A DNA stretch of 64,000 nucleotides, taken from positions 49,412 to 113,411 of the forward strand of contig CAWEHK010000039.1 of NCBI GenBank assembly GCA_963808625.1, written 5' to 3'. The notes under the pieces are model-generated. The model was not told the origin of the DNA, did not search any database, and worked only from the letters and a program-made list of their open reading frames with translations. The position numbers and the translations under genes were made by a program. Shown piece after piece: positions 30,159 to 60,847 of the stretch. Position 1 is the stretch's first letter. Each line of letters starts with the position of its first letter. The stretch is from an uncultured delta proteobacterium (lineage in GTDB: Bacteria; Desulfobacterota; Syntrophobacteria; Syntrophobacterales; Syntrophobacteraceae).

Positions 30159-30319
30159 CCCAAACTCCTTTTCTGTAATTCGTTAACCCTCGCCCCTTTG
30201 AGAGTGTAACGGAAATGGTTGGCTGCATACTTATTCTTGAGGCAAGCGTCTGTCTAGCCGGAAAACCCTGATTATCAGCGTCGAAATGCCTGATTCTGAC
30301 TTTCGGAAATCCTGACGGG

Positions 30320-30471
30320 GGATTTCGGATGTCGGATTTCGGATGTCGGATTTCGGATTTGGGATGTGGGATGTGGGATGTGGGATGTGGGATGTGGGAT
30401 TTCGGATGTCGGATGTCGGATGTGGGATGTGGGATGTCGGATGTCGGATTTCGGGTGTGTGATGTGGGATG
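30320..30471. repeat. Heptamer tandem array (GGATTTC/GGATGTC/GGATGTG)n
   Basis: About 21 units of the same family as 22341 and 34281. Confidence 0.92.
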
Positions 30472-31393: not shown

Positions 31394-32212
31394 ATGATGA
31401 GAGCGAAGTGGCTGGTTTTGGCTGCAGTATCTTTGGTATGTTTGATGGCAGGCGGCGCCTCGGCAGGGACGATCCGGATGGATGGGTCGACGACGGTGTT
31501 GCCGATCGCACAGAAGCTCGTGGAAGCTTACATGAAAGAACATCCCGAGGTGAACATCAGTGTCTCCGGAGGCGGCTCGGGGAACGGGATCAAAGCACTC
31601 ATTGACGGGACTACCAACATTGCCAATAGTTCCCGTTTTATGAAGGATGAGGAGGTCAAACTGGCCTTCGAAAAAGGGGTCTATCCGGTGCCTTTCGCCA
31701 TTGCCTATGACTGTATTGTTCCTGTGGTGCATCCCGATAATCCCCTTACCGATATTTCCATGGCCCAGCTCAAGGCGATCTACATGGGTGAGATCAAGAA
31801 CTGGAAGGAAGTGGGTGGTCCGGATAGAGAAATTGTCGTCATCTCACGGGATACTTCATCCGGTACCTATGAGGTGTGGGAAGAGAAAGTAATGAAGAAG
31901 GAACGCGTCTATGCGGGGGCTCTGCTGCAGGCTTCCAGCGGGGCGGTGGCGCAGGCCGTTTCCAAAAATAAGAATGCACTCGGCTACCTTGGCATCGGTT
32001 ACGTGGATAAGAGTGTGAAGGCGCTCACCGTGAATGGTATCCAGGGGAATGAGGAAACGGCGCTCAGCGGAAAATTTCCTGTCTCCCGTGCGCTCTTCAT
32101 GTTCACTCAGGGATGGCCGAGTGGAGACATCCTCAATTTTATCAACTACGTCCTCAATCCGCAGAAGGGGCAGAAATTCGTGCACGAGGCCGGATTCGTT
32201 CCGTTGTATTAA
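31394..32212 (+). CDS. pstS: Phosphate ABC transporter substrate-binding protein
   Basis: Signal peptide, DGSTTV, GGGSGNG, NSSR, SRDTSSGT. Confidence 0.95.
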   Translation: MMRAKWLVLAAVSLVCLMAGGASAGTIRMDGSTTVLPIAQKLVEAYMKEHPEVNISVSGGGSGNGIKALIDGTTNIANSSRFMKDEEVKLAFEKGVYPVPFAIAYDCIVPVVHPDNPLTDISMAQLKAIYMGEIKNWKEVGGPDREIVVISRDTSSGTYEVWEEKVMKKERVYAGALLQASSGAVAQAVSKNKNALGYLGIGYVDKSVKALTVNGIQGNEETALSGKFPVSRALFMFTQGWPSGDILNFINYVLNPQKGQKFVHEAGFVPLY

Positions 32213-32247
32213 CGCGATCAAAACGAGGATCGAAGGCGGAGAAAAAC

Positions 32248-32329
32248 GGGGGCGGGGATAAACCCCGCCGCTACAGGGTATGGGGATGGTGGTGGTCAGG
32301 CGCGTTAGGGGCGGACTTTAAGTCCGCCT
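32248..32329. repeat. GTAG-type REP pair between pstS and pstC
   Basis: GGCGGGG-ATAAA-CCCCGCC-GCTAC and TTAGGGGCGGAC-TTTAA-GTCCGCC. Confidence 0.65.
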
Positions 32330-32400
32330 GAGCAGGTTTGAATGACGGATACTGGCGGTTCTCTCGCATCATAGGGCAGGGAAGGCAGCGTGAAGGGTAA

Positions 32401-33297
32401 GTGAAGGTGAAAACGCACCAAACCGGAGACAAGCTCATTGGTCTGGGATTTTTGGTGATAGCGTCCATTTCTATTCTGGTGCTTTTCATGATCCTCGTAT
32501 TCCTCTTTGTGGAAGGCCTGCCCATACTCAAAAAAGTGTCCGTATGGGGTTTCATTTTTGGACAGGAATGGTATCCCACCTCGTCACCTCCCGACTTTGG
32601 CATATTTCCGTTGTTGGCAGCTTCTCTTGCGGTCACCTTCCTCTCCGCGCTCATGGCCATCCCCCTGGGAGTCATGACGGCCATCTATCTTGCTGAAATC
32701 GCTTCGGCCCGGATTCGTGAGATCATTAAGCCCGTCGTTGAGTTATTGGCGGCCTTGCCGTCAGTCGTCATCGGCTTTTTTGGCATGGTCGTGGTGGCTC
32801 CCTTCTTACAGGATACGCTTGATCTTGCGACCGGATTGAACCTTTTTAACGCCGCGTTGATGCTGGCTTTCATGTCGGTCCCCACGATCTGCAGCATCTC
32901 CGAGGATGCGATTTACAGCGTCCCGCGGGAACTGAAGGAAGCCTCGCTGGCGCTGGGGGCCACGCACTGGGAGACCATCCGCCGGGTCTTGGTTCCGGCC
33001 TCTTTATCGGGAATCAGTACGGCCGTTATCCTGGGGATGTCTCGCGCCATCGGTGAAACCATGGTCGTGCTGATGGTAGCAGGCGGGGCGGCGATGATCC
33101 CGACCTCCATATTCAAGCCGGTGCGGCCCATGCCGGCGAGTATCGCGGCGGAAATGGCCGAGGCCCCGTTTCGCGGAGATCACTATCATGCGTTGTTTGC
33201 GATCGGCATTGTGCTTTTCCTTTTTACCCTGTGTTTCAATCTGGTGGCGGATCACATTGCCCAGAAACACAAGCAGGTGGGGGCGGCTACCCTTTGA
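32401..33297 (+). CDS. pstC: Phosphate ABC transporter permease PstC
   Basis: ELLAALPSVVIG, EASLALGAT, RAIGETM. Confidence 0.95.
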   Translation: MKVKTHQTGDKLIGLGFLVIASISILVLFMILVFLFVEGLPILKKVSVWGFIFGQEWYPTSSPPDFGIFPLLAASLAVTFLSALMAIPLGVMTAIYLAEIASARIREIIKPVVELLAALPSVVIGFFGMVVVAPFLQDTLDLATGLNLFNAALMLAFMSVPTICSISEDAIYSVPRELKEASLALGATHWETIRRVLVPASLSGISTAVILGMSRAIGETMVVLMVAGGAAMIPTSIFKPVRPMPASIAAEMAEAPFRGDHYHALFAIGIVLFLFTLCFNLVADHIAQKHKQVGAATL

Positions 33298-33311
33298 CAA
33301 GGCTGGCAGAA

Positions 33312-34283
33312 ATGGCGCTCATGGACTCTCAGCCCGGCAGTGCTCACGGTGACCTTTCGCATGAAAGCGACAAGGCGGGCTCGCAAGGCAAACATGGCAG
33401 CAATGTCCTGGCGGCATCGCAGAGTGGATCTCTTACCCGCAATCGTCGCTGGGTCCAGGCCGGCTTTTTCAGCCTGTTCCGCATTGCGGCCATGATCAAC
33501 GGGCTGGCCCTTTTCATCGTCGTTGCTTTTCTGCTCGTGAATGGCTGGCGTGCCATCAACTGGACCTTTCTCAGCCAGATGCCCCTGGATTCCATGACCC
33601 GGGGAGGCATCTTCCCCTGTATCGTAGGCACCTTTTTCCTGAGCTTTGGAGCCATGATCGTGGCGTTTCCGTGGGGCGTGGCGTCGGCGATCTACCTCCA
33701 TGAATATGCACGGCCCGGAACGATATTGCGTGTGGTCCGCCTTGGGATCAATAATCTTGCGGGGGTGCCATCGATTGTGTTCGGCCTTTTCGGGCTGGCC
33801 TTTTTTGTGATCTGGTGCAATCTAAAGGTAAGTCTGCTGTCCGGCGCTCTGACGCTCGGGGCGCTTATCCTGCCGGTCATTATCGGCACGGCCGAGGAAG
33901 CTCTGCGGGCGGTTCCGGCAACCTACCGGGAAGCGTCTCTCGCCCTGGGGGCCACGAAGTGGCAGACCATCTACCGCGTGGTTTTGCCCGCGGCTTTTCC
34001 CGGGATGTTAACCGGATGTATCCTTGGCGTCAGCCGGGCAGCGGGAGAAACCGCGGCCATTATGTTCACCGCCGCCGTATTCTTCACGCGCCAATTGCCT
34101 TCCTCGTTCTTTGATCCGGTGATGGCGCTGCCGTATCACATTTACGTCCTCGCCACTGCGGGAACCCAAATTGAACTCACCCGCCCGCTCCAATACGGCA
34201 CGGCCCTGGTGCTCATCGCCCTGGTTTTCAGTATGAACCTGATTGCGATCTTCTTTCGCGCCCGCCTGCAACGAAGGTTTTGA
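33312..34283 (+). CDS. pstA: Phosphate ABC transporter permease PstA
   Basis: NLAGVPSIVFGLFG, EASLALGATKWQ, RAAGETA, ALPYHIY. Confidence 0.95.
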   Translation: MALMDSQPGSAHGDLSHESDKAGSQGKHGSNVLAASQSGSLTRNRRWVQAGFFSLFRIAAMINGLALFIVVAFLLVNGWRAINWTFLSQMPLDSMTRGGIFPCIVGTFFLSFGAMIVAFPWGVASAIYLHEYARPGTILRVVRLGINNLAGVPSIVFGLFGLAFFVIWCNLKVSLLSGALTLGALILPVIIGTAEEALRAVPATYREASLALGATKWQTIYRVVLPAAFPGMLTGCILGVSRAAGETAAIMFTAAVFFTRQLPSSFFDPVMALPYHIYVLATAGTQIELTRPLQYGTALVLIALVFSMNLIAIFFRARLQRRF

Positions 34284-34382
34284 TGTCGGATGTCGGATTT
34301 CGGATTTCGGATTTCGGATGTCGGATTTCGGATGTCGGATTTCGGATTTGGGATTTCGGATTTCGGATTTGAGATGTGGGAT
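34281..34382 (+). repeat. Heptamer array, left arm flanking the four-helix-bundle gene
   Basis: TGATGTC GGATGTC GGATTTC...; begins at the pstA stop codon. Confidence 0.92.
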
Positions 34383-34395
34383 TATTGAGGTTTCA

Positions 34396-34758
34396 TCATT
34401 GCTGAGGCTTGGGAGATTTGGTGCTTTTTCCGGTTGCAACAAAGATGGATAGCAATTCATCACACTCCTTTTGCATTGGCTCCAGGACATCATGAGCGAG
34501 CAAATCCATTTCGGCCAACAATTCCAGCCAGTACAAGGTCTCATCTGCTTCCTGTTCGACGATTCCGATCTTGGAAATGAAATCAGCTCGGGATCGAGCT
34601 CTGCAAGCTTCCCTGTAATTCGCTCCAATGCTTGTACCGGACTTCAAGAGCTGATAGCCGACTACGTCGGTTGTTCTGTTCTTCGGCAAAGAGGCTACCA
34701 GCTCGATAACCTTTATAGCGAACTCTTTAGTGCGCCTCCGAAGGTCCTCCCTATTCAT
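34396..34758 (-). CDS. Four helix bundle protein (23S rRNA IVP-like, TIGR02436-type)
   Basis: RTKEFA, QLLKSGTSIGANYREA, SRADFISK, EADETLYWLELL; AGGAG RBS. Confidence 0.93.
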   Translation of the reverse strand: MNREDLRRRTKEFAIKVIELVASLPKNRTTDVVGYQLLKSGTSIGANYREACRARSRADFISKIGIVEQEADETLYWLELLAEMDLLAHDVLEPMQKECDELLSIFVATGKSTKSPKPQQ

Positions 34759-34804
34759 GATCTGCTCCTAAACCTCCGTTCAAATTCCCCGTTTTCCATA
34801 CAGA

Positions 34805-34930
34805 AATCCAAAACCAATCTGACACATCCCACAGTTGCGACCCGATATCCAACATCCCACATCCTCCATCCGCAATCCGCAATCCACCATCCACCATCCC
34901 CAATCCGAAATCCGAAATCCGAAATCCCCA
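34805..34930 (-). repeat. Heptamer array, right arm (inverted relative to the left arm)
   Basis: ATCCCAC/ATCCGCA/ATCCACC/ATCCGAA units, the reverse complement of the GGAT heptamers; abuts the phoU stop. Confidence 0.88.
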
Positions 34931-34932
34931 AT

Positions 34933-35592
34933 TCATTCCTGGCAATGGTGCTTGATGTTGACTCCCTTGTTGATAAAGATGACACTCTCGGCAATGTTCG
35001 TCGCCTGATCGGCAACGCGCTCCAGGCAGCGGGCGGCGATGATCGTTTGCACTGACCTTTCCACGGCCGGGAGCTCTTCGACCATATACTCCAGGAGATC
35101 CTTAAGGACTCTGACATTCATATCATCGGCGGCATCGTCCATCTGGCAGACCTCCATTGCCTCCTCTGAGTTCTCATTAACAAAAGCGTGAATAACAGTG
35201 CGGAACATGTCGAGAGCAATCTGTCCCAGCTGTTCCATGGCCGGATTGGGGGGCAAGGGCGGTCTGCTGCTCAGGAATTGCGCTCGCTGCGCGATGTTGA
35301 CCGCCTGGTCTCCGGTCCGTTCCAGATCCACCGCAATCCTCATACACCCGACGATAAAGCGCAAGTCGCGGGCCATTGGCTGATCCAGGGCGAGGAGGCG
35401 CAGGGATTGCCTGTCGATGTTGACTTCTAACATGTTGATCTCCTGATCGCCCCCGACAACCTCATCGGCCAGTTGCATGTCACGTTCGAGAATGGCTCGA
35501 ATGGACTTCTCCAGAGCCCTTTCCGACAAAGCAGCCATCTGCAGTATCATCATTTTGAGCTCTTCCAATTCCTTATGAAAACGGCTATCCAT
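34933..35592 (-). CDS. phoU: Phosphate signalling protein PhoU
   Basis: QPMARDLR, DLERTGD, LERVADQATNIAE. Confidence 0.96.
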   Translation of the reverse strand: MDSRFHKELEELKMMILQMAALSERALEKSIRAILERDMQLADEVVGGDQEINMLEVNIDRQSLRLLALDQPMARDLRFIVGCMRIAVDLERTGDQAVNIAQRAQFLSSRPPLPPNPAMEQLGQIALDMFRTVIHAFVNENSEEAMEVCQMDDAADDMNVRVLKDLLEYMVEELPAVERSVQTIIAARCLERVADQATNIAESVIFINKGVNIKHHCQE

Positions 35593-35603
35593 TTGCTAGA
35601 CTC

Positions 35604-36366
35604 CTAACCGAAGCGGCCAGTGATATAATCTTCGGTCTGCCGAATCTTGGGTTTTGTGAAAAGGGTTTCGGTTGCATCCATCTCAATAAGCTTGCCCATG
35701 TAGAAAAAAGCCGTGTAATCGGATACTCGTGCAGCCTGCTGCATATTGTGCGTAACGATGACGATGGTGTAAGTCGCCTTAAGTTGATCAATCAACTCTT
35801 CAATTTTCTGGGAGGCGATGGGGTCAAGCGCCGAGGCGGGTTCATCCATGAGCAGGATTTCCGGTTCCACGGCGAGGGCGCGGGCGATACAGAGGCGCTG
35901 CTGCTGGCCCCCGGAAAGGCTAAGCGCAGAACCATGGAGCCGATCCTTGACCTCATCCCACAAGGCTGCCTGCCGCAGGCTCTGTTCCACGCGTTCGGCG
36001 ACGAACAGTCGATCCTTGACTCCGTTCACCCGCAAGCCGTAGGCTACGTTTTCAAAGTTGGTCTTCGGAAAAGGGTTCGGCTTTTGAAAGACCATGCCCA
36101 CCCGGCGCCGCAGGCTCACCACATCCACTTTCGGATCGTTGATGTTCTCGCCCATCCAAGATGATTTCGCCCTCCACCCGACTGGTTGGAACGAGATCAT
36201 TCATCCGGTTCAGGCAGCGCAGGAAGGTGCTCTTGCCGCAACCTGACGGGCCAATAAGAGCGGTCACCTGATTCTCATAGAAGTCGAGAGATATATCCTG
36301 CAATGCATGAAAATCACCATAATAAAAATCGAGGTGCTTTGCTGCGATCTTCACGAGCGTATTCAT
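35604..36366 (-). CDS. pstB: Phosphate ABC transporter ATPase PstB, indel near 36150
   Basis: GPSGCGKST...LNRMND in one frame; [27 protein letters not shown] in the next. Confidence 0.93.
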
Positions 36367-36436
36367 TTCCTTATCCTTAGTTTTAAAGCAGTGACCAGTG
36401 GCTAGTGCACACGGACATAAGTTCGTGCATGCCCCC

Positions 36437-36511
36437 GGTGGGCAAAAAAAACCTGCCCACCCTACGGAACCGGGAACACTGTAGGGTGGGCACAGGTTCT
36501 CCGTGCCCACC
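36437..36511. repeat. GTAG-type REP pair, itself flanked by inverted TAGCCAC/GTGGCTA heptamers
   Basis: GGTGGGCA..TGCCCACCCTAC and GTAGGGTGGGCAC..GTGCCCACC. Confidence 0.75.
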
Positions 36512-36560: not shown

Positions 36561-38374
36561 TCACTGCTCCTCCGCGCTCACCAGAGTGAAGGTGAATGTC
36601 GCGCCATCGGTGTGACCGGGGTTAGGGCTCTGGACCCAAATCTGGCCCCCATGATTGAGGATGATGTGTCGGCATATAGCCAATCCAAGACCAGTATTTC
36701 CCAGATCGCTGCCGCGACTTTTCTCGATTCGGTAGAATCGTTCAAAGATTCTCTGCTGATGATATTTCGGAATGCCGGGTCCATCGTTGCTCACACTGAT
36801 CGTCACAGTGTTGCCTTCCGCGTAGCCATCCACGGTAATGGTCCCGCCTTCGGGGCTATAGCGGATTCCGTTTTCGAGCAAATTCCGAAAGACTCTGACG
36901 AGTTGGTCAAGGTCAGCCGAGACGTAAACCAGCTTTGCCGGTATATTGCTTGCCAGGCTTACGTGCTTGGCCTCAGCGAGGGGAAGGCAAGCCCTCCACG
37001 CAGCCATCAGGGCTTCCGTTGGGCTCACCGGGACCGGTTTGAGACCATCCCGCCCGGCTTCCATCCTGGCCAATTGGAGCAGGTCGTCCACGATGCGCAC
37101 CATGTGATTGGTGTTCTTGAGGATCACTTCCAGGAAAGAAGAGAGCACTTCGGCCTCCGGTTGAGGTTTTGCCAGCAGCGTCTCGGTATATCCTTTGATG
37201 GAAGTGAGGGGAGTGCGGAGCTCATGAGAAACATTGGCTACAAAATCCTGGCGCACCTTTTCGAGCTGTTTCAGGCGGCTCATGTCGTGAAAGACGACCA
37301 CTGCCCCGCCGTTCGCATCCTGGTCCGGCAAGCGAACGATGTTGACCTCAAAAGTGCGGTCGTTTCCGATGAGAATAAGCAGGTACTGAGGAGGATAAGA
37401 CTGCTGATACTGATCTTTTGAAGCCAAAATACGATCACAGGCTTCCTGAAGCTCCAGACTGAGAACAACTTCAAGAGGGCGACGCCCCAAGACCTTTCCT
37501 GTGCGCCCAGCAGCTCGGAAAGAGCGCGATTGACACCTTGGATCCTTCCTTTCGAATCCAACACCATCACCCCGTCCCGCATCGCATTGAAGACGGCATC
37601 GAGCTCTTGTCGCTGCGCTGTCAAGGCCAGAAACCGGCGTCCCGTGTTTTCTGCCATGCGGTTGATGGTGTCCGCCAAAGCATACAACTCTTCGCCGGGT
37701 GTGAAATGGATGTGCTGCCTGGTGTCCCCTTCGCCAATGCTCTCCACGGCCTGAGCCACTGAGCCGAGGTCTTTTTTGAGTCTGCGGATCAAAAAGTGAC
37801 TGAGCCATGCCGCCGCGACGAAAGCCAGAGGAACGATTAGAAAAAAGAGATTTCTCAAACGCTCAACGAGGCCTTGAATTTCAGCCACGGGGGCGGCAAC
37901 CCGGATGACACCGGCGGGAATTCCATCTCTTGGTTGGATGCTCCTCGCCGCAAAAACCTGCTCGCTCCCCGTAATCTTGCTGAAGCGAGTCATGAAGCCG
38001 ATCTCGTCATGCAGTGCCTGGGAGATTTCCGGGCGACCTGAAAAGTCCTCCAGGTCTTTGATCTGATCAAAGGGAACCATTGAATCGGCCAATACCTGCC
38101 CGTTGTAGGCGACGTAAGTCACGCGGAGGTTGAGGGGTTTGGCAATTGCCAGAATCCACTCCTGCAATTGTTCGGGATTTTGAAATTCCTCGTGCTGAGC
38201 CATCAAGGAACAAACGAGATTCAGTTGCTGGGTCAGGTTTTGTTTTACCTCGTTATGGATGCCATAGTGCAGCTTTGTATAGGCATACCATGAAGGGAAG
38301 ATGAGGGTGAGGGCCAGCAACCCCCAAAGCGAAAGGATGAGGATCGTTCTGAAAGAAACACTATCGCGCATCAC
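36561..38374 (-). CDS. phoR: Phosphate regulon sensor kinase PhoR (TM, HAMP, PAS, HisKA, HATPase), indel near 37480
   Basis: FVANVSHELRTPL, NLLENGIRY, NDGPGI, FERFYR, GLGLAI. Confidence 0.9.
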
Positions 38375-38449: not shown

Positions 38450-38478
38450 CTCAGCACCCAGCACTCAGCACCCAGCAC
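38450..38478. repeat. Short heptamer array (CAGCACY)n
   Basis: ctcagcacccagcactcagcacccagcact. Confidence 0.75.
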
Positions 38479-39165
38479 TACTTCTTCCCTAAACGATAGC
38501 CGACACCGCGCACGGTCTCGACCCAGTGAGAGTAAGCGCCGAGCTTCTGGCGCAGGCGCCGCACGTGGGTGTCTACGGTTCGGGCATAACCTTCGAACTG
38601 ATATCCCCAGACTTTATCAAGCAGTTGCTCGCGGGTCTGCACTTTTCCCCGGCTGCGAACGAGTTCCACCAGCAGCTTGAATTCGGTCGCGGTAAGCAGG
38701 ATCTCTTCGCCATCAGTGCTCACTTGATGCCCTTCGAAGTCGATGCGAAGCCCTTCATTTTGCCAGACCGACTTCCGCCATCGGTTCTCCCGAGGAGCGG
38801 CGCAAAATGGCGCGGACACGCAGCATCAGCTCCCGAGGACTAAAGGGTTTGACCACATAGTCGTCGGCCCCCAGCTCCAAACCCACAATGCGGTCAACCT
38901 CTTCTCCCCTTGCGGTCAGCATGATCACCGGAATGTTCCGGGTTTCCGCGCTTCTTTTGAGTTCTTTGCAGACTTCAAAGCCGTCGAGCCCTGGAATCAT
39001 CAAATCGAGCAGGATCAGGTCGGGAAGGCGCTGCTTGGCCATGGTGAGGGCTGCGTAGCCTTCCTCGCAGGTCAGGACCTCGTATCCTGCAGCCCGAAGA
39101 TTATAAGCCAAGAGCCCGAGAATATCGTTATCGTCTTCCACAACCAGGATGCTGACTTTGGACAT
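38478..39165 (-). CDS. phoB: Phosphate regulon response regulator PhoB (OmpR family), indel near 38770
   Basis: [52 protein letters not shown]. Confidence 0.9.
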
Positions 39166-39286: not shown

Positions 39287-39324
39287 GTCACGAAAATACC
39301 TCGAAACCGAAACACTCCCGTCAA
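39287..39324 (+). promoter_or_regulatory. Weaker Pho-box-like array toward the methyltransferase operon
   Basis: GTCAC 39287, GAAAC 39309, GTCAA 39320 (in 11-bp phase). Confidence 0.45.
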
Positions 39325-39378: not shown

Positions 39379-40070
39379 ATGCAAACACTCAGTCTAAACA
39401 ACGACCTCTTGAAGGACATTTTCAAGTATGCGAAACCACTGGGGCATAACGAAAAGCCGGCCAATCTGAATCTTGGTTTTGGCTTCCTATACTATGGCCT
39501 GGTAAGGGCGCTGCGCCCCCGGCATGTCCTGGTGATCGGCTCCGGCTTTGGTTTCAGCCTGGTCTGCCTGGCCCTCGGGCTCAAGGACAATGACCAGGGC
39601 AGCTTACTTTCGTCGATCCCGCGTATTCCTTGTTGAAAGACGGACCGTTCAAGACCATCGGCGGCACCGGGAAATGGAGCGATCCTCAAAAGGTGCATGA
39701 CCATTTCAAGCTCTTTGAAGTTGAGGACTTCATCACCCACCACAAGCTGAGAAGTGATGAGTTCTTCCCGTCCTATGCAAGCCTTCGGCTTCCTGAAATT
39801 GATGTTGCGTTCATTGATGGCAGTCATGCTTATAAAGACGTCAAGTATGATTTCCTCAGGACCTTGGAGCATTCGCACAAAAACACCTACATCTTCTTAC
39901 ACGACACCCACATTTACATTCGCGAAATGCTGCACCATGCGGGTGTCAAACGTTGGCTGAAAATCCTGAAAAGGGAAGAGGAATTCTTTGAGGTCATCAA
40001 TTTTCCCTTCTCTTCAGGCGTGGCCCTGGTTCGAGTGATGCAAGACACCGTATGGAAGTATACGAAATAA
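39379..40070 (+). CDS. Class I SAM-dependent methyltransferase (Methyltransf_24-like), indel near 39610
   Basis: LVRALRPRHVLVIGSGFGFS, FIDGSHAY, LHDT. Confidence 0.8.
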
Positions 40071-40784
40071 GAGCTTTCGCAGGCATCTTCGTCGTTTCCG
40101 GACTGTTACTTGTTCTTGGTTTCGTTTATTGGCGTTACGTCTGGTTCTTTCGGAACCCCCCCAGAAATCCTCCCCCCGGAACGGGAATCCTGAGCCCGGC
40201 AGACGGCACGGTCGTCTACGCCAGGATTGTGGAACCCGAAGAGGACGTGATCACCGATCAAGCGGGGCGCCAGGGTTTCGGTCAACGACATCGTGCGCGA
40301 GCACCTCACCCTGAGGAAAGTCTTGATCGGGATCTTCATGAGTCCTTTCGACGTCCATTTCAATCGTGCGCCCCTCTCCGGGCAAATCCAGTTCATCCGT
40401 CATTATCCCGCCGTTAAGAAAAATGTCCACATGGGATCGATGCATTTGCGCACGGTCTTGAAACTCGCCCCCCTCTCCAAAAACAGTCTGCATATTGTGC
40501 AGAACGAGAGGACCATCACGAAAATTGACGGAGAGTTCAAGGGAGACGCCCTCTCCTGCTATGTGATCCAAATCGCCGGGGGGAGTGTCCGAGGGATCGA
40601 TAGTTACTTTCGGGAAGGGGAAAAAGTTGAACGAGGAGCGATCTTCGGGATGATCCGCATTGGCTCCCAGGTGGATCTTATCGTTCCTCTAAAGGAAGGA
40701 ATGAAAATGAGGGTGCATCCGGGGCAAAGGGTGCGCGCCGGGGAAACGGTGCTCATTGAATATGAAAAGGATACTAAACTATGA
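40052..40784 (+). CDS. psd: Phosphatidylserine decarboxylase family protein, indel near 40260
   Basis: N-terminal TM, FFRNP, LSPADG, IFMSPFDVHFNRAP, NER, GMIRIGSQVD (GS self-cleavage site). Confidence 0.85.
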
Positions 40785-43235
40785 AAGTCGATCTGCACGT
40801 CCACTCCAAGTACTCGAAGCGGCCCGCTGAGTGGATCCTTCAAAAGCTCGGCTGCCCTGAGAGTTTCACCGAACCTTTTCAGGTCTACGGATCGCCAAGG
40901 AAAAGGGGATGTCACTGGTCACGATTACCGATCACAATACCATTGCCGGCTGCCTGGAAATCGCCCATCTCCCCGATGTCTTCATCAGCGAAGAGGTGAC
41001 AACGTATTTCCCGCAGGACCGGTGCAAGGCTCACGTCCTGGTTTACAATATCGACGAAGAGATTCATCACGAGATCCAGAAGGTGCGGGAAAGCATCTTT
41101 GATCTCGTGGCTTACCTGCACGCCAAGGGGATCGTTCATGCGCTGGCGCACCCCCTCTTTGCCGTCAATGATCGCTTGACCATCGAGCATTTCGAACAGT
41201 TCCTGCTGCTGTTCCGGAACTTTGAACTGAACGGGGCGCGGCATGACGACCAGAACCGTCATTTGCAGTACATCCTGTCCGGTTTGACACCAGCCGATAT
41301 CGAGAGGCTGGCGAACAAACATGGCATATCGCCGCTTTTTGAAAGACCGTGGCAGAAGCACCTCACGGGAGGTTCCGACGATCACAGCTCGCTGAATATC
41401 GCCCGACAATATACGGACATAGCCATCACCGGCAACGCGGATGAGTTCCTGCGAGCGATTGAAACCGATCAGACAAGGATCGTTGGCCGCCCATCGACGG
41501 CGCAAACCATGGCCCACAATCTCTATGGCATTGCCTACCAATTCTACAAGAATAAATTCAACCTCGAGCGCCATGTGGATAAGGACATTTTCTTGAGGTT
41601 TCTCGATCGTTTTCTCCAGAACGATCAGCAGGAAAGCGGTCTGTTCACAAAGCTCTACTCGCTCTGGAATCACCGCAAACGGCCCAGGAACAATGGCGCG
41701 GCGCCGCACCGGGTGCAGGATGTGCTGCGTCATGAAACGCTGAGACTCATATGGGACGACCCGGAACTCATGGACATGGTCAAAAATGGTGGCAACGGCG
41801 GAGCTAACCCTGACAACAAATGGTTCCAGTTCGTCAACCAACTCTCAAACAAGGTGCTCGCCCATTTTGGTAATCATATACTGGACAACCTTTCCGGGGC
41901 GAACTTGTTCAAAATGTTCCATTCCCTCGGTTCCGCCGGCGCCCTCTACGCGGTCCTTGCCCCATACTTCGTGGCCTTCTCGATGTTCGCAAAAGAAAAA
42001 CAACTTTCTGAACAAATCCTGGAAAGATTCACGAGCGGGCGACTCACCGGGCAGGCGAAAAAGCGAAGGCGTCAGGGTGGCTCATTTCACGGACACCTAC
42101 TATGATGTAAACGGCGTTGCGCTTACCCTGCAACATCAGGTGCAAATGGCCCTGAAAACGAAGAAGAACCTGACGGTGATCACGTGCAACGCCGAACATC
42201 GGCCCCATGGCAAGGGAGTGCAGAATTTCCAGCCGGTCGGCGTGCAGGAGGTGCCCGAATATCCGGAACTCAAGCTCTTTCGTTCCCCCATTCCTGGAAA
42301 TACTCAATTATTGCTACGAACAAGGTTTCACCCAGATCCATGCGGCAACTCCCGGCCCCATCGGACTGGCGGCCCTGGCAATCGCACGCATTTTCAAGCT
42401 GCCCATTTGTGGGACCTACCACACGGCGTTGCCCCAATACGCTCAATATTTGACGGGCGACAATACGATTGAAGACCTCGTATGGCGATTCACCATGTGG
42501 TACTACGAACAGATGGATTACGTATATGTTCCTTCGAGGAGCACCGCTCAGGAGTTGATTCAGAAGGGGATCCGACCTGAGCGGATAAGGTTTTTCCCCC
42601 GCGGTGTCGATATCCGGCGTTTCCACCCGTCTAAACGAAACCCTCAGTTCCTTCGCGATCGCTTCCAGATCGGTGACGGGATGAAATTGCTCTATGTGGG
42701 CCGCATCTCCAAAGAAAAGGATCTTCCGCTCCTGGCAGAGGTCTTTAAAACGCTGTGGAAGGCGCATGAAGAATTGCAGCTTATCGTTGTTGGAGACGGA
42801 CCTTATCTCAACGAACTTCGGGAAAGCATGAAAGGCAGTCCTTGTGTATTCACCGGTTACCTGGAAGGGGAGGACCTTGCAACCGTCTACGCCTCCTGTG
42901 ACCTCTTTGTTTTCCCGAGCACCACGGATACCTTCGGCAATGTGGTCCTGGAGGCCCAGGCTTCAGGAATTCCAGTGGCCGTTACGGACTCGGGCGGGCC
43001 GCAGGAAAACGTTATCCCGGAAAAAACCGGTCTCGTAGTCGAAGCGCATAATGCCGAAAGTTTGCTGTATGCGATTCGCTGGTTCATCCGCAGTCCCCTC
43101 TGCCGGAAGCGGATGGGCGAGGCTGCCCGGCGCTATATGGAAGACCGCTCCTTCGAAAACGCTTTCGACGAAACCTGGGAAATGTATCAGACCGGGCACA
43201 TAGTCCCGGAATGCTCGCTGGATGAAGCCGTATGA
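40781..43235 (+). CDS. PHP-domain / GT4 glycosyltransferase fusion, three indels
   Basis: DLHVHS, TDHN, AHP, GGSDDH (PHP); FTDTYYDVNGVA, TPGPIG, YHT, YVGRISKEK, TDTFGNVVLEAQASG (GT4). Confidence 0.85.
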
Positions 43236-44623: not shown

Positions 44624-44661
44624 GTCGTGAACTCTTCGCTTGAATGTCACGAGTTCGTAAC
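44624..44661 (+). promoter_or_regulatory. Pho-box-like array upstream of the dehydrogenase-phnX-phnW cluster
   Basis: GTCGT 44624, TTCGC 44635, GTCAC 44646, GTAAC 44657. Confidence 0.62.
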
Positions 44662-44730
44662 AGTTGCCCTCTATTCCCGTACAGACGCGCTCAAGGTGCA
44701 CATTCAAAACTGGAACAGAAGGAAGGAATC

Positions 44731-45915
44731 ATGAAGATCTTCTGTTTGGGTGGGGCTGGCAGAATCTGCCGGGAAGCCGCGCTCGATCTTGTGAAATTCG
44801 CTCGAGTCGATCGCCTGACGATCGGCGACCTTGATCAGGAAACAGGGCAGGGCGTGGTAAGATGGCTCAATGATGAGCGTGTTGACTTCAAGAGAATCGA
44901 TATCCTTGACCGTGCGAGTGCCATTGCAATCATGCGTGGCTATAACGTCGTCGTGGACGGCACGGCCATATCACTCAACGGCCGGTCTACTGCCTGCATC
45001 GCCGAGGCGGGAGCGCACGGCATCAATCTGAATGGTTTCGGGGAAGAGTACCAATTCGATCAAAGGTTTAAGGACAATGGTCGCATCTTTATCCCTGGTT
45101 TTGGCATGACCCCGGGAACGACGAACATGATGGCAAAATACGCCGCCAGTCGGATGGATACCGTAGAAACCGTCCGCATCAGCCACGGGGCCTTTCGACC
45201 AGTGGCCTTTTCCGCGTCTATCGCAGAAACGACAACTTATGAATATGATCCTGACCTTCCGGGCCGTGTGGTGTATGAAGATGGGCAATTCATCCAGGTT
45301 CCTCCTTTTGCACGACCCCTGGAGGTTGAGCTTCCCGAACCCTACGGCAAGCATGTTCAGTACATCATTCCCCATTCCGAAACGAAGACCCTGGCAACTT
45401 ACCTTGCCGACAAGAAGGTCAAACTCATCGAGGTGCGGGGCACCTGGCCCGCGAAGAATATGCAGTTGATCAAAGCGCTCTATGAGTGGGGATTTTTGCG
45501 CAACGACAAGGTGAAGATGGGTAACGCCGAATTTGGCATTATGGATGCCATTGCAGCTTATCTGATCCAGGCCCCCGAAGGGAGAACTGCCGAATTATGC
45601 GGATACGCCCTCCATGTGGAAGTGGTCGGAAGCAGGGACGGCCAAAAGATCAGGCATGTCCTGTGGCATACTCACCCGGCATCGGATGGTTCGGTGACCG
45701 GTTGGGAGGGTCTTCGCGCCTATACTCGCTGTGTCGGGATTCCTCTTGCCGTCGGGGCGCATTTGATCGCTCAAGGGAAAGCGCTGGGGTGTGGTGTGGT
45801 TATTCCAGAGTACGCTTTTGAACCAACTGCAGTATTTGAAGAACTTAGGAGGAGGGAGATTTTTATCCATGAGAGAACTGGCGCTTTTGATGCCCATGCG
45901 TCACGGCGGGAGTGA
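44731..45915 (+). CDS. Saccharopine dehydrogenase-like NAD(P)-dependent oxidoreductase
   Basis: LGGAGRIC Rossmann motif, GFGMTPGTTN, HSET, GVVIPE. Confidence 0.85.
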   Translation: MKIFCLGGAGRICREAALDLVKFARVDRLTIGDLDQETGQGVVRWLNDERVDFKRIDILDRASAIAIMRGYNVVVDGTAISLNGRSTACIAEAGAHGINLNGFGEEYQFDQRFKDNGRIFIPGFGMTPGTTNMMAKYAASRMDTVETVRISHGAFRPVAFSASIAETTTYEYDPDLPGRVVYEDGQFIQVPPFARPLEVELPEPYGKHVQYIIPHSETKTLATYLADKKVKLIEVRGTWPAKNMQLIKALYEWGFLRNDKVKMGNAEFGIMDAIAAYLIQAPEGRTAELCGYALHVEVVGSRDGQKIRHVLWHTHPASDGSVTGWEGLRAYTRCVGIPLAVGAHLIAQGKALGCGVVIPEYAFEPTAVFEELRRREIFIHERTGAFDAHASRRE

Positions 45916-46074
45916 CGACAGGTGAAGCATGGTTGATCAATCGCCCGACTCTGAAACGAGTCATCATGGTCATTTGTGCTGTGGCGCCGCGGCCGGGGGC
46001 CGGTGGCAAGCGACAGCAGCGTTGATTGGTATTTGTTGAGGACAGCATGAACGAGAAATTCAGGGAGCATTCCG

Positions 46075-46908
46075 ATGCCAGTTCTAAATCGCAACATACC
46101 CTATACAGGTCGCGTCCAGGCGGTCGTTCTTGATTGGGCTGGGACGGCTGTTGACTATGGCTGTGTTGGTCCGGTCGCCGTGTTTGTTGAGGTGTTCCAC
46201 GATTTTGGGGTCGAGATTACCATTGCGGAAGCAAGAGCGCCCATGGGATTGATGAAGAAGGACCATATCCGGGCGATCTGCGGCATGGAGACCGTTGCGG
46301 AAAGGTGGGAGAGGATCCGTGGACGCCAACCGGGGGAGGATGATGTCGAAGCGATGTATCGCCAGGTGGAACCGCTTATGGAGTCAATGGTCGCCCGATA
46401 TTCCGAGCCTATCCCCGGGCTGATCGAGGCCGTAGCAGCCTTCCGCCTCCAGGGGATCAAATTAGGCTCGACCACCGGCTACACGCGCTCCATGATGGAG
46501 GTGCTCGTTCCTCTTGCAGAAGCGAAAGGATACCGGCCTGATGCAACGGTCTGCCCATCGGACGTTCCCGCCGGGAGGCCTTACCCATGGATGTGCTACC
46601 GGAATGCTATAGATCTTGAAGTCTACCCCTTTGCGGCCATGGTCAAGATTGGAGACACGTTGCCGGACATCCAGGAAGGATTGAATGCCGGGATGTGGAC
46701 TATCGGGGTGACCAAAACGGGAAACGAAATTGGCCTGACCGAAAGGGAAATTTCGGTTTTGACTTCTGCGGCTCTCAAAGTGAGGCTTGAGAAGGTGGAG
46801 AAGCGGTTCCAGGACGCTGGTGCGCACTTCATTGTCGAGAGTATCGGGGAGTGCCCGGCCATCATTGAACAGATCAATGCATGCCTGGCCCGAGGCGAGA
46901 AACCTTAG
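46075..46908 (+). CDS. phnX: Phosphonoacetaldehyde hydrolase
   Basis: LDWAGTAVDYG, PMGLMKKDH (Schiff-base Lys), GRPYPWM, KIGDT, EGLNAGMW. Confidence 0.96.
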   Translation: MPVLNRNIPYTGRVQAVVLDWAGTAVDYGCVGPVAVFVEVFHDFGVEITIAEARAPMGLMKKDHIRAICGMETVAERWERIRGRQPGEDDVEAMYRQVEPLMESMVARYSEPIPGLIEAVAAFRLQGIKLGSTTGYTRSMMEVLVPLAEAKGYRPDATVCPSDVPAGRPYPWMCYRNAIDLEVYPFAAMVKIGDTLPDIQEGLNAGMWTIGVTKTGNEIGLTEREISVLTSAALKVRLEKVEKRFQDAGAHFIVESIGECPAIIEQINACLARGEKP

Positions 46909-46999
46909 AACGACAACGATACTTCGCTGCACTCCTTTCGGATGAGAGGAAACGCATTTTTGAGAACTCTTTTAGATCCTTCGTATGGGAGCATAACCT

Positions 47000-48250
47000 A
47001 TGAACACTGATGATTTGCCCGATAATCCCTATATTTTGCTCACTCCTGGACCCCTTTCAACGACCAAGGCGGTAAAAGCGGTCATGCTCCGCGACTGGTG
47101 TACCTGGGATGACGACTATAACAGTATTGTTCAGGCGATCAGACAGAAGCTTGTCAGCCTCGCAACGTCCGCCGAGGGATATACGTCGGTCCTGATTCAG
47201 GGCAGTGGGACGTTTGCGGTTGAGTCCGTGATCGGCACGGCCGTGCCCCCAGGTGGGAAACTGCTGGTTCTTGCTAATGGTGCGTACGGTCAGCGCATGG
47301 CTCAAATCGCGACCCGTCTGTGCATACCGGTAACGGTTCTCGATAGTGGTGAGTTGGACCCGCCCGGTCTGAACCTTCTGCGAGATATGCTGCAAGGCGA
47401 CAAAGAGATCACGCATGTTGCCGTGGTCCATTGTGAGACGACCACGGGCATGCTCAATCCTGTGGATCGAATCGGCGAGATCACAAAGTGTTTCGGAAAA
47501 GTCTATATTGTCGACGCGATGAGCAGTTTTGGGGGCATTCCCATTGAAATGGCCGATATCGGCGCCGATTTCTTGATCAGCAGCGCCAATAAGTGCATTC
47601 AGGGGGTGCCTGGCTTCGGCTTTGCTATCGCTCGCCACGACCAACTTGAGAAAACGAAGGGAAGGGCCAGGTCCTTGAGCCTGGATTTGTACGATCAATG
47701 GGACACCATGGAGAGATATGCCGGCAAGTGGCGCTTTACTTCTCCCACCCACGTTGTTCGCGCTTTTGCGGAGGCTTTGAAAGAACTCGATCGCGAAGGT
47801 GGAATAGAAGCGCGTTACACTCGCTACCGGCAAAACCAGAGTCTCCTTGTCGAAGGGATGCAGGAACTGGGCTTTCGTTGCCTCCTGCCCCGTGAACACC
47901 AGTCACCGATCATCACCTCTTTTCTCAGCCCTGAACATCCGGCCTATGATTTCAAGCGGTTCTATGAAGAGTTGAAAGCCGGAGGATTCGTTATCTATCC
48001 GGGCAAGGTGACATCAATGGACACTTTTCGGATCGGCAGCATTGGCAACATCGATGTCAAGGATATCGAACGCCTGTTTGTATCGCTGCGAGAATCAATG
48101 TATTGGACAAAGGGCTTCGCGCCTCGCGGGATTACGTCCGAAAGCCGGGGAATGGGAGAGAGGGAGTCCTTGAAGGCCTTGCCGGAGGAAAGTCCATCGG
48201 TAAATCATCTCGGGTCACACAAATATAACCCTTCCTTAACAACTCCGTAA
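47000..48250 (+). CDS. phnW: 2-aminoethylphosphonate-pyruvate transaminase
   Basis: [44 protein letters not shown]; the tail after MYW may be an artefact. Confidence 0.95.
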
Positions 48251-48312: not shown

Positions 48313-48654
48313 TTGTTGAGGGAGGGGCGGCGCCGGAGAAGAAGAGGGGTACTGGCTGCGTTGAGCGATGACGAGGACAAAGGAGTCACATGCCCAGACT
48401 GCGGATCGGATGCTGTTTACCGTTATGGCATGACCAAGCATCGAAAAAGGCGTTTTCAATGCCTGGTGTGCAAGAGGCAGTTTTCCTTCAACAGCCTGAG
48501 GCGCAGTATTATGAATAACCCCATTTGTCCGCACTGCGATGAGCCAATGCACGTCTACAAGCGAGAGAGTCAAGGCATAAGATACCGTTGTTCCAACTAT
48601 CCTTATTGCAGAACGTATTTCAAGTCGACAAGGGCAGAGGAGGATCGAAATTGA
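48313..48654 (+). CDS. Double zinc-ribbon protein (IS1 InsA-like ribbon plus topoisomerase-type C4 finger)
   Basis: CPDCGSDAVYRYG...RFQCLVCKRQF; CPHC...RCSNYPYC; start may be TTG 48361. Confidence 0.72.
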   Translation: MLREGRRRRRRGVLAALSDDEDKGVTCPDCGSDAVYRYGMTKHRKRRFQCLVCKRQFSFNSLRRSIMNNPICPHCDEPMHVYKRESQGIRYRCSNYPYCRTYFKSTRAEEDRN

Positions 48655-49022
48655 GCTATTATGTGCACAGCACTCCCGGCAGGCTGCGCGTTAAGATCCC
48701 TTCCGTCAAAGGGAGCCCGAAATTTGCCAATGATGTGGAGGGGATTCTCATGACCATTGAAGGCATAGACTCAACCGCCGTGAACACGCTTACCGGCAGT
48801 GTCGTCATCAATTATGATAAAAAGATCGTCAGTTCCGAGGCGGTGCTCAGCATTCTCGAGAAGAAGGGATATTTCGAGATTCCCAAGGCAGTCCCCAATG
48901 ATCGCTATCTCGAGGAAGCGGTCTCCAAAGCGGGTAGTGTGGTCGGCAAGGCTGTTCTGGAGGTGCTGCTCGCAAAAGCGTTTGAGGGATCTGCGCTGTC
49001 GCTGTTGACGGTCCTCATTTGA
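48651..49022 (+). CDS. HMA2 domain protein
   Basis: YVHSTPGRLRVK...GIDSTAVNTLTGSVVINYD; GAGGAGG RBS before TTG 48651. Confidence 0.82.
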   Translation: MSYYVHSTPGRLRVKIPSVKGSPKFANDVEGILMTIEGIDSTAVNTLTGSVVINYDKKIVSSEAVLSILEKKGYFEIPKAVPNDRYLEEAVSKAGSVVGKAVLEVLLAKAFEGSALSLLTVLI

Positions 49023-49051
49023 TGTGAATCCTGAGATACCGAAGATCCACG

Positions 49052-49384
49052 ATGAAAAGTGATTACCTGCCGACGGAAGATATCATCGATACCGTCATCA
49101 ATTTGGCGCCTCACGCGGAAATCTGCCATCATATCCCGGGCAGGATTCGCCTGAAAATCACTCCTTCGGGTCTAGGCTTGATTGAAGGATCCGGGATTGT
49201 CCGGATCATTCGTTCAATTCCAGGGGTGATGAAGCAACGCATCAGTTTCCACTCCAGGTCAATTGTCATCGAATACGACCGCAAGCGAATACCTTATGAC
49301 CTGTGGGAATTACTGGGACAAATCAGAGATAAACCGGAGCTGGCGACGGTGGCAACTCATCTCATGCGGGTGTTATGGACTTGA
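49052..49384 (+). CDS. HMA2 domain protein
   Basis: HHIPGRIRLK...IPGV...SRSIVIEYD. Confidence 0.78.
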   Translation: MKSDYLPTEDIIDTVINLAPHAEICHHIPGRIRLKITPSGLGLIEGSGIVRIIRSIPGVMKQRISFHSRSIVIEYDRKRIPYDLWELLGQIRDKPELATVATHLMRVLWT

Positions 49385-49848: not shown

Positions 49849-51758
49849 ATGAAGACCGTGTTGCTTCAGTCGAAAGCGGAATTGATTTCTCACCTGTTCA
49901 CTTCGGATGATGGAGGGTGTAACTTGGATAGCAGAATTTCGCAGTCTATGGAGATGGAACTCAGCATTGATCCCGAACCTTCACGCTATCGAAAGATGTT
50001 TCGTTTTGCAGCGCAACCATTGAACCGCCTGCTTTGCCTTGAGCGGGCAAACAACTCTGTCATTCGTTTAACGGATGACAGTGGCCAACCCCTGGCCGAC
50101 AGGGTGCTGAGTCGCCTGGGGATATCCTATGGACTCCTCGATCTGGACCCCGCCGGATCCCAAAACCGGGCCACTGATTCGGTCGGGAAACACCCTTTCG
50201 GAGCTTGGCGGGCCTGGTTCTTGCTTCCATACTCCAATCCATAAGACCGGACACGAAAATCCTTGCCAACTATCTCCTCCGGCGAATAGACCTGCCGGGC
50301 TTTCGGGACATGTTTATTTTTGTTGATCCTTTCGAGGGACCCGGCCGGATCAGAAGGAATGTTGGGCCACTTAGAGCAGCCTTGCACTGGCTGCACACCG
50401 GTGGGGTGCTGGGCGTTTTCCCTTCCGATGAGGTATCCCACTTTCATTTGAGAAGGAGACAAATCACTGATCCAAGATGGAACCGTTCCTTGCAGGAATG
50501 GTGAGGCATAACAAAACTTCGGTGCTCCCTTTCTTATTCGAAGGGCGCAACAGCATCCTCTTTCAGCTCCTGGGACTGTTCCATTTCCTCACCTGAGGAC
50601 CGCAATGCTGGCGCGAGAAATGTTCAATAAAGGCGGCAAGGAGATCCGGGTTCGCATTGGAAAACCCGTTCCCTCCGAGAAACTCAGCAAGTTCAGGGAC
50701 GACGACGAAATTGTCGCATACTTGCGCATGAGAACCTATATGCTGGGCAATTACCGGGACGCGCCGCGCCGAATGGGCCTCCCGAAAGTGCTGAGACTCA
50801 TGAAAACGCAATTCTGTCGGGCAATTGCACCGCCGCGGGATCCAAATCTCGTGCCTGGTGAGGTGAAAGCCATCCCTCCGGGACAAGTACTGGTAGACAC
50901 AGGTTCATTTAAGGTCTTCCATGCAGAATCCAATCAAATCCCCCTCCTCTGCATAAATCGGGAGGCAGCGAGAAATCACCTTCCGTGAGGCAAATGAAGG
51001 CACCGGTAAAGCCATAGACCTTGATGAGTTCGATGGTCACTACACCCATCTCGTCTTGTGGAATAAGGATGCGAATGAACTCGTAGGCGCCTATCGCATC
51101 GGCCTGACTGATAGAATCCTGAGAATATATGGATGCCGTGGGCTTTACACGAGCAGCCTTTTCACCTTCGCTCCTCGCTTTCTACAGGAGATAAGTCCGG
51201 CAATGGAACTGGGCAGATCATTCTTGCGTAAGGAATACCAGAAAAGCTATCAGCCCCTCATGCTTCTGTGGCATGGAATAGGCAAGTACGTTTCATCCAG
51301 GCCACAGTACAAGATCCTCTTTGGACCTGTCAGCATAAGCAGTCATTATCAACGTATCTCCAGGGATCTAATTGTTGCTTTCTCGAAAAATCACCATCGA
51401 GGAGAGCTTGCTCAGTATGTCAAGGGCATGGTCCCGAGAAGAGCAATCTGCTCACGAAGCGGCTTGGGCTCAAATCCACCTCTGGGTTATCAACAACGTC
51501 CAGGATTTGTCGGAACTGATTTCGTGCCTTGAACCAAGCCATGGGGGCATACCCATCCTGCTCAAACACTACTTGAAGCTGGGCGGGAAGTTCTTGGGGT
51601 TCAGCATCGATCCGAGCTTCAGTAAAGTCATGGATGCATTGATCATGGTCGATCTTGCGCAGACCAACCGGACCCTGCTGGAGCGATATATGGGTAGAGA
51701 AGGGGCCGATTCCTTCCTGAGATTTCACAACCTGGTCTCCTATCGTGCCTGTGCTTGA
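49849..51758 (+). CDS. Lysophospholipid acyltransferase + GNAT bifunctional protein (OlsF-like ornithine lipid synthase), multiple indels; start uncertain
   Basis: HPFG, KILAN, VFPSDEVSH; EITFREANEGTGKAIDLDEFD, GAYRIG, ELGRSF, LLWHGIG, LFGPVSIS, IPILLKHYLKLGG. Confidence 0.8.
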
Positions 51759-60600: not shown

Positions 60601-60706
60601 ATTCGCTTCCTCCCTGGCCGACGCCGCTGTGTTGGGTCTGGCCGGTCTCTCCTCCAGAGCACTCCTCACCGCAGTGGAAAACAGGCGGAGACTAGAAGAG
60701 ATTTGA
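57670..60706 (+). CDS. P-type ATPase (P2-like) with N-terminal HMA2 domain and non-canonical ion site, indel near 60490
   Basis: VPADAR, LTGES, DKTGT, KGSP, DPLR, TGD, GDGFND; M4 reads LPSGL; C-terminal TMs in ORF 60395-60706. Confidence 0.88.
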
Positions 60707-60847
60707 CACATGGATGTCACGGAATGATCATGATTACGCAATGTTCCAACCCTAGAATGAATCCTGAATCGAATCCCGTAGCATTTGATTTCCTGAAAAA
60801 CTTGAAATCCGGTGAAGCCGAGAGGAGTGTTGACGCTGAAAAAGGGA

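Follow-up and report, generated by a model that had tools for sequence, protein, structure and literature searches.

Anoxic settings poor in phosphate are rich in phosphorus-free membrane lipids (PMC5193443; PMC8311935), but few genes for such lipids are known from anaerobes. In PlcP–Agt renovation, a phosphoesterase supplies diacylglycerol (DAG), from which a GT4 glycosyltransferase makes glucosyl- or glucuronosyl-DAG (PMC8528852). BtaA transfers the aminocarboxypropyl (ACP) group of S-adenosylmethionine (SAM) to a lipid, and MccD and MccE couple ACP transfer with decarboxylation (PMC10491745). A Desulfovibrio alaskensis G20 mutant in Dde_3613 ("Agt") loses both glycolipids under low phosphate; the supplement labels the gene product a PHP-domain protein, and the main text never mentions a PHP domain, a phospholipase or PlcP (PMC5193443). 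Here we compare with these systems a three-gene operon found in a 64,000-nucleotide stretch (the window; positions 49,412 to 113,411 of contig CAWEHK010000039.1, assembly GCA_963808625.1) from an uncultured member of the Syntrophobacteraceae. The operon encodes a SAM-dependent enzyme, a paralog of phosphatidylserine decarboxylase (PSD), and a PHP phosphoesterase fused to a GT4.

The operon is real, conserved, and undescribed at the enzyme level, and it most likely serves phosphorus-free lipid remodelling. Its first two genes form a pair that probably makes a new amine-bearing membrane lipid. The route we favor, to which we assign a probability of roughly 0.4, is transfer of the ACP group from SAM onto DAG followed by decarboxylation, which would give a diacylglyceryl-3-aminopropyl ether. 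Within the literature found, consisting of titles, the starts of abstracts, and few subscription papers, there is no description of the pair, of an aminopropyl-DAG lipid, or of a PHP lipid phosphoesterase.

Results

A three-gene operon divergent from phoB

A preliminary description of this DNA reported three overlapping genes divergent from phoB, a PSD with an intact GS cleavage site, and a PHP domain fused to a GT4, and these observations are borne out. The genes are:

39379..40070, + strand: SAM-dependent enzyme gene, Methyltransf_24 subfamily (PF13578), 230 residues; frameshift near 39601
40052..40784, + strand: PSD-like pyruvoyl decarboxylase paralog with an N-terminal membrane helix (PF02666); frameshift near 40255
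40781..43235, + strand: PHP phosphoesterase–GT4 fusion, about 820 residues in relatives (GT4 Pfam families, PHP motifs); frameshifts near 40887, 42068, and 42276

The first two genes overlap by 19 bases and the last two by 4, and the divergent phoB starts at 39165. Pieces of the open reading frames (ORFs) match Methyltransf_24 (E 1e-10), PS_Dcarbxylase (E 2.5e-29), and GT4 (E 6e-37), and the decarboxylase cleavage motif RIGSQVD is present. The same phoB-divergent operon is found unbroken in three relatives (L006, L132, and L133), the named ones among which are Syntrophobacteraceae.

The conserved unit is a pair

Two sets of loci were assembled, both weighted to close relatives: a scan with the PSD piece gave 418 relatives, the best 80 of which were kept, and a scan anchored on the SAM enzyme gave 363, again with the best 80 kept. 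The SAM enzyme lies directly upstream of the PSD-like gene in 79 of the 80 PSD-anchored loci, the 80th ending at a contig end; conversely, the PSD-like gene lies directly downstream in 76 of the 80 SAM-enzyme-anchored loci, the contigs of the remaining four being too short. The pair is spread over Desulfobacterota, Nitrospirota, and proteobacteria, and carriers include the cultured Desulfoferrobacter suflitae. Among 201 evenly sampled phylum genomes, the PSD-like gene occurs in seven, always behind the SAM enzyme; a close SAM enzyme occurs in nine, two of which (G237 and G199) have no PSD-like gene, the G199 copy having degenerate motifs. A 251-genome sample of the order that holds G015 contains both genes in four genomes, two of them already in the 80-locus set, and a distant homolog alone in one. 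A search of plasmids gave no match.

The arrangement is conserved, though not everywhere as a trio: the PHP–GT4 fusion follows the pair directly in 37 of the 80 loci and lies somewhere in the locus in 41. In proteobacterial loci the pair has other neighbors, namely plcP, stand-alone GT4, dgkA, or PAP2 genes, which often run in the same direction. Because the proteobacteria couple the pair to plcP/agt, the conserved unit is the SAM enzyme plus the PSD-like protein rather than the trio.

Some SAM-enzyme relatives are degenerate (L113:2363-3121; P0014, P0051, P0072, P0097, and P0139), with motif I or DGxH residues missing; the context of one of them is known, and it includes no PSD-like gene.

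The PSD-like protein is a spare paralog

The preliminary description had left room for a separate housekeeping psd–pssA, and one is indeed present elsewhere in the genome, among ilv/leu genes (contig C5); the PSD-like protein is thus a spare paralog beside a housekeeping PSD. Genome-wide counts were made in 50 pair genomes, from 50 of the 80 loci, and 46 of them hold at least two PF02666 matches. Whereas pssA flanks 19 of 20 picked housekeeping psd copies, it flanks none of the 80 pair loci. In a quick tree, 39 paralogs form a clade separate from 20 housekeeping copies, with a Shimodaira–Hasegawa-like approximate likelihood ratio test (SH-aLRT) value of 100. The paralog fails every NCBIfam PSD equivalog cut-off (best 129 of 183), whereas the housekeeping control passes (259 of 225).

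The catalytic machinery appears intact. In a 40-row alignment of the paralogs, H103, G205, and S206 are invariant and D52 is at least 90% conserved; these residues correspond to the maturation triad of E. coli PSD (PMC7952604). A hydrophobic N-terminal helix is present in 34 of the 40 rows. The paralog model has a predicted local distance difference test (pLDDT) value of 90.6, and its top Foldseek matches are to E. coli PSD (E 2e-5, template modelling (TM) score ~0.48); the search also brought up PsiD and fungal arginine decarboxylase, precedents for PSD-fold enzymes acting on phosphate-free amino acids.

The paralogs differ from housekeeping PSDs in two family-specific insertions and in three arginines, invariant in all 20 housekeeping proteins, that are replaced in the 39 paralogs: one by glycine in 38 of 39, one by isoleucine, valine, or threonine, and one by glutamine in all 39. 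One of the lost arginines is the residue immediately after the pyruvoyl serine. These arginines may bind the lipid phosphate in housekeeping PSDs. In E. coli PSD, Tyr137 is a phosphate-binding residue (PMC7952604); the paralogs appear to have a phenylalanine at the equivalent position, as do the short housekeeping PSDs.

Two further cassettes with PSD relatives were observed. A second, long-type PSD paralog (~350 residues) behind a protein of 800–870 residues without a Pfam match (L078:3248-6755, L112:13545-17205, and L128:464-4547) is found close to the pair or the fusion in several Desulfobacterota and was not found in this genome (G000). In 5 of the 80 loci, all proteobacterial (L023, L036, L064, L065, and L083), the pair has, no more than 8 kb away, a cluster that encodes a class III aminotransferase, an Mpo1-like protein, and another PSD.

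The SAM-dependent enzyme

The first enzyme matches PF13578 with 65 bits against a cut-off of 26.3, and 40 of 40 members match that family. Its invariant residues are GSG, D80, D147-G-x-H150, and H175-D176. The fold is class I SAM-dependent and resembles COMT/CCoAOMT, the best matches having Z 15–17.5; MeT1, CalS11, SpnH, and TrmR are among the top matches, and MccD, NAS, and BtaA are absent among the 50 fold matches listed. No match to PF11899 (BtaA, DUF3419) was found among the 40 members, no NCBIfam family, PmtA included, matches at E 1e-5, and an Atlas search returned solely Methyltransf_24 clusters. Solved structures searched by sequence yielded no significant match to the SAM enzyme, the PSD paralog, or the PHP domain.

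Motif I reads VIGSG, with valine in place of the glutamate and hence no acidic residue. An acid-less motif I is also found in the NAS-type ACP transferases (FLGSG), spermidine synthases (IIGGG), and BtaA (TISSG) that were fetched for comparison, while four of six other Methyltransf_24 control proteins carry ExG there. Residues 187–200 form a basic amphipathic helix that suggests membrane binding.

The PHP–GT4 fusion and the probable supply of DAG

The PHP domain is divergent, but its metal motifs (HxH, DH, E, H, H, ExN, and SDDH) are invariant in 21 of 21 intact relatives; PF02811 matches 20 of these 21 at a loose E-value (best E 4.9e-5), and the first member scores 15 bits against a cut-off of 26.4. 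At least 2661 homologs of the fusion exist. The phosphoesterase domain is of the PHP type, with no calcineurin-like metallophosphoesterase domain as in PlcP, and a PlcP query against this genome gave nothing at E 1e-20. The GT4 is ~30% identical to the stand-alone GT4s beside plcP and passes no NCBIfam cut-off.

Among the 50 pair genomes, 26 have the PHP fusion alone, 21 PlcP alone, 1 both, and 2 neither. The stronger point is perhaps less the split than the coverage: a candidate DAG supplier, fusion or PlcP, is present in 48 of the 50, and in one of the two exceptions (L064) a PAP2 phosphatase is encoded 4 kb away from the pair. The suggestion that the PHP domain replaces PlcP and hands DAG to the fused GT4 thus stands in so far as the two are near-complementary in these genomes and the GT4 fits a glycolipid synthase (PMC5193443), but the complementarity is confounded with lineage. 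On balance, we regard the PHP domain as the probable DAG supplier. In the phylum sample, the fusion occurs in 27 of the 201 genomes, including all nine with a close SAM enzyme; it is commoner there than the pair and joins other cassettes, for example with olsF or a radical SAM gene.

Directly behind the fusion, several genomes have such a radical SAM gene (L026:11116-12420, L125, L126, L128, and L129), whether or not they contain the pair; its product is a possible glycolipid-tailoring enzyme. A calcineurin-like phosphoesterase in two ORFs at 62334-63442 of the window, near Pho-like sites at 63565 and 63587, was considered as PlcP and rejected, as it is not PlcP-like.

Probable Pho regulation and genomic neighborhood

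A Pho-box matrix was trained on 10 pstS upstream regions, with 142 other intergenic regions as controls. Of the 78 loci whose region upstream of the SAM enzyme is not shared with a divergent pstS or phoB, 23 score at least 10 bits there, compared to 4 of the 142 controls, in agreement with the proposed link to phosphate starvation. A lipid-remodelling or pst/pho gene from our label set is present in 62 of the 80 loci, and neighbors of the pair include pst, phoBR, phoH, phoD, phoA, phoX, phn, and the genes for ornithine-lipid and monogalactosyldiacylglycerol (MGDG) synthases. We propose that the operon is controlled by PhoB. The relevant features of the window are:

39307..39324, + strand: Pho-box-like direct repeat facing the operon, 8.8 bits
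39220..39250, - strand: strong Pho-box array (18.2 and 15.1 bits) directed at phoB; a + strand site of 10.6 bits overlaps it
38478..39165, - strand: phoB-type response regulator, frameshifted
36561..38374, - strand: phoR-type kinase, split into two ORFs
31394..36510: pstS-pstC-pstA (+ strand) and pstB-phoU (- strand), with a Pho box at 31269
50193..51758, + strand: olsF-like ornithine-lipid synthase, frameshifted, a second phosphorus-free lipid gene of the island, with a Pho-like site at 49538

Other genes of the island were noted in passing. Within 44644-48250, a 16.2-bit Pho-box-like site lies ahead of a saccharopine-dehydrogenase-like gene that is linked to phnX and phnW; these genes may feed N-substituted aminophosphonates into the breakdown of 2-aminoethylphosphonate. 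Pho islands of this kind repeatedly contain Zn-ribbon, HMA_2, DUF5132, and P-type ATPase genes (window 48313-49384 and 57670-60867; L007, L012, L031, and L118); in the window, positions 48234 and 49538 carry Pho-like sites. A 23S rRNA IVP-type four-helix gene lies between pstA and phoU, with short low-complexity repeats around it (window 34290-34930 and 30230-30400).

Discussion

A proposed route to an aminopropyl lipid

In the pathway we favor, the PHP domain would strip the phosphate-bearing head from a phospholipid, or dephosphorylate phosphatidic acid, to give DAG. The fused GT4 would glycosylate DAG to hexosyl-DAG and glucuronosyl-DAG, a step modelled on the knock-out of the Desulfovibrio gene annotated as PHP. 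The SAM enzyme would move the ACP group from SAM onto DAG, and the membrane-anchored PSD paralog, after maturation to a pyruvoyl enzyme, would decarboxylate the resulting alpha-amino acid. The product would be a cationic diacylglyceryl-3-aminopropyl ether that could substitute for the amine of phosphatidylethanolamine (PE) and pair with anionic glucuronosyl-DAG. The reverse order, in which SAM is decarboxylated first, would lead to the same product and is included here.

The reasoning starts from the decarboxylase: a pyruvoyl decarboxylase requires a free alpha-amino acid. No amino-acid-adding gene recurs among the neighbor clusters of the 80 loci. BtaA was considered as the upstream supplier and rejected, being full-length in 2 of the 50 pair genomes, with 7 more partial or weak matches; in this genome it was not found by a search whose controls were blank too. 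Since the decarboxylase needs an alpha-amino acid, no gene that could add one recurs, and its constant partner binds SAM, the SAM enzyme would be the simplest donor. The preliminary description instead had the pair decarboxylate and methylate an amino-acid-modified phosphorus-free headgroup. We retain the decarboxylation but replace the methylation by ACP transfer, because the earlier scheme needs a third enzyme and none recurs. MetK neighbors were also considered as a partner and set aside, as they occur in 5 of the 80 loci, too few, and are tied to a P-type ATPase.

Several observations weigh against this route. For the SAM enzyme, both ancestry and fold are those of the metal-dependent O-methyltransferases. 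With hhalign, the values were 95.7% to other Methyltransf_24 proteins, 0.9% to NAS, and 0.04% to a two-sequence alignment of BtaA, and no Methyltransf_24 protein is known to us as an ACP transferase. Metal-dependent O-methyltransferases usually bind vicinal diols, of which DAG has none. The missing motif I acid is common to nearly all distant homologs, some of them fused to glycan enzymes, and is shared by two of the six Methyltransf_24 controls, so that the change is not a marker of this pathway. In G237, an intact SAM enzyme occurs with no PSD-like partner. For the decarboxylase, the paralogs gain other invariant basic residues, K71 and R134, and a review describes phosphate recognition in the short-type PSD as unresolved (PMC9385802). 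For the fusion, the split between PHP and PlcP tracks lineage and comprises few independent events, which makes it weak as statistics, and the non-overlap in the phylum sample (27 versus 4 of 201) would often be expected by chance. The best NCBIfam match of the GT4 is GlcNAc-phosphatidylglycerol synthase, at 144 of 480 far under the cut-off, and Dde_3613 is linked to the fusion by an automatic label, not by sequence. Finally, the operon-facing Pho box of the window is weak, its counterparts at the same position scoring 11.6–16.1 bits in several relatives, and 18 of the 80 loci are without a lipid or pho gene from the label set.

Alternative chemistries

In the alternative that survives best, which we nevertheless consider rather unlikely, a phosphorus-free amino-acid lipid made by an unlinked enzyme is first decarboxylated by the PSD paralog and then methylated on N or O by the SAM enzyme. 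This would fit the fold and family of a methyltransferase, and the conserved D147, H150, and D176 suit a metal-assisted methyl-transfer site, with roles that we take to be those in COMT-type enzymes; the Pho and paralog evidence fits equally well. However, neither the neighbor clusters nor the rarity of full-length BtaA points to such an amino-acid-adding enzyme, and the spread of just these two genes from phylum to phylum would be puzzling if the pathway needed a third. Ornithine lipid would not serve as the substrate, as its alpha-amine is acylated and could form no pyruvoyl Schiff base. The BACys lipids of Desulfatibacillum alkenivorans (PMC11181052) were entertained as a product and dropped; their headgroup formula also fits homoserine-cysteine, and the operon is without a ligase.

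Alternatively, the acceptor could be a sugar hydroxyl of the GT4 glycolipid, or of another envelope glycan, giving an aminopropyl-glycosyl-DAG that with glucuronic acid would be a zwitterionic mimic of PE. Enzymes of this fold class act on sugar and diol hydroxyls, as MeT1, CalS11, and SpnH among the top matches illustrate; GT17, GT9, mannosyltransferase, and GNAT domains occur as fusion partners of distant SAM-enzyme homologs, and a GT4 stands beside the pair in most long loci. Several proteobacterial loci, however, have no GT4 nearby, and a genome-wide search with a query for one of two GT4 types turned up close homologs in 10 of 26 such genomes. We judge this variant unlikely.

Ordinary phospholipid chemistry, in which a second PSD makes PE, the methyltransferase leads on towards phosphatidylcholine, and the Pho link is incidental or reflects phospholipid turnover, appears quite improbable. 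It would account for the intact PSD triad and fold, but not for the absence of pssA from the pair loci, the sub-threshold scores of the paralog beside a housekeeping copy that passes, the loss of three invariant arginines, or a SAM enzyme without a match even to PmtA, and it would save no phosphorus.

A decaying locus with genuine frameshifts is very improbable: five single-base frameshifts are spread over all three genes, and G199 shows that a degenerate SAM enzyme without its partner exists, but this assembly (84.6% complete) likewise breaks up phoB, phoR, pstB, olsF, housekeeping psd, asd, and leuC, the first three frameshifts are absent from near-identical contigs of other runs (the last two lie outside their coverage), and the pieces remain 61–85% identical to intact relatives (the SAM-enzyme pieces 83–85% to the L006/L132 proteins) with every catalytic motif kept. 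Since other genes, housekeeping ones included, are broken too and the near-identical contigs lack the first three breaks, the frameshifts are likely assembly or sequencing errors.

Significance

Returning to ACP transfer onto DAG, we tentatively extend it to a broader proposal: the pair may be a route to an undescribed phosphorus-free counterpart of PE, built from the first Methyltransf_24 ACP transferase and a repurposed PSD-fold enzyme, with the PHP domain as a new class of phospholipase C or phosphatidate phosphatase that replaces PlcP in sulfate reducers and syntrophs. If true, this would add a class of lipids, extend the reactions of a large methyltransferase family by a new one, and provide a possible biomarker for sediments and peat under phosphate stress. 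The two-gene module, present in more than 400 genome stretches across several phyla, offers exact and testable targets; for the 34:1 species, the predicted lipidomics ions are m/z 696.577 and 652.588. The PHP domain, in turn, is a candidate for the missing DAG-releasing enzyme of Desulfobacterota.

Comparison with known systems

Compared to its closest relatives in sequence, each protein of the pair stands apart. The paralog has the fold, D-H-S triad, GS cleavage site, and membrane anchor in common with the short PRK05305/Asd-type PSDs (E. coli structures 7CNX and 6L06), but differs in its own clade, two insertions, three lost arginines, sub-cut-off scores, and a position that is never beside pssA. 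The cation-dependent O-methyltransferases (CCoAOMT/COMT, MeT1, TrmR, and CalS11) are the best fold matches of the SAM enzyme, which conserves their acidic residues after strands 4 and 5, but it is only 13–19% identical to them, has valine for the motif I glutamate, and carries the helix 187–200.

In chemistry, the proposed first step, ACP from SAM onto DAG, and its purpose under phosphate starvation are those of the BtaA/BtaB route to the betaine lipid diacylglyceryltrimethylhomoserine (DGTS). The SAM enzyme, however, has no homology to BtaA, and the second step here would be decarboxylation rather than N-trimethylation. The aminopropylation of microcin C by MccD/MccE likewise combines an ACP transferase of methyltransferase fold with a decarboxylase to give an aminopropyl group, although its acceptor is a peptide-nucleotide phosphate and its decarboxylase uses pyridoxal phosphate (PMC10491745); the likeness is one of proposed chemistry. 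Dde_3613 shares the GT4 and the PHP label, but no SAM-enzyme or PSD partner is described for it (PMC5193443).

The nearest parallel is PlcP–Agt renovation as described for Pseudomonas aeruginosa (PA3219/PA3218/PA0842), Phaeobacter, and Sinorhizobium (PMC8528852). Both systems appear to be Pho-controlled and join a candidate metal phosphoesterase to a GT4, and the proteobacterial copies of the pair adjoin plcP/agt. Here, however, the phosphoesterase is of the PHP family and fused to the GT4, and the SAM enzyme and PSD-like pair are not part of the pathway as described. By analogy, the operon would work like PlcP–Agt renovation with an added head-group branch, while belonging to neither the PlcP nor the BtaA family.

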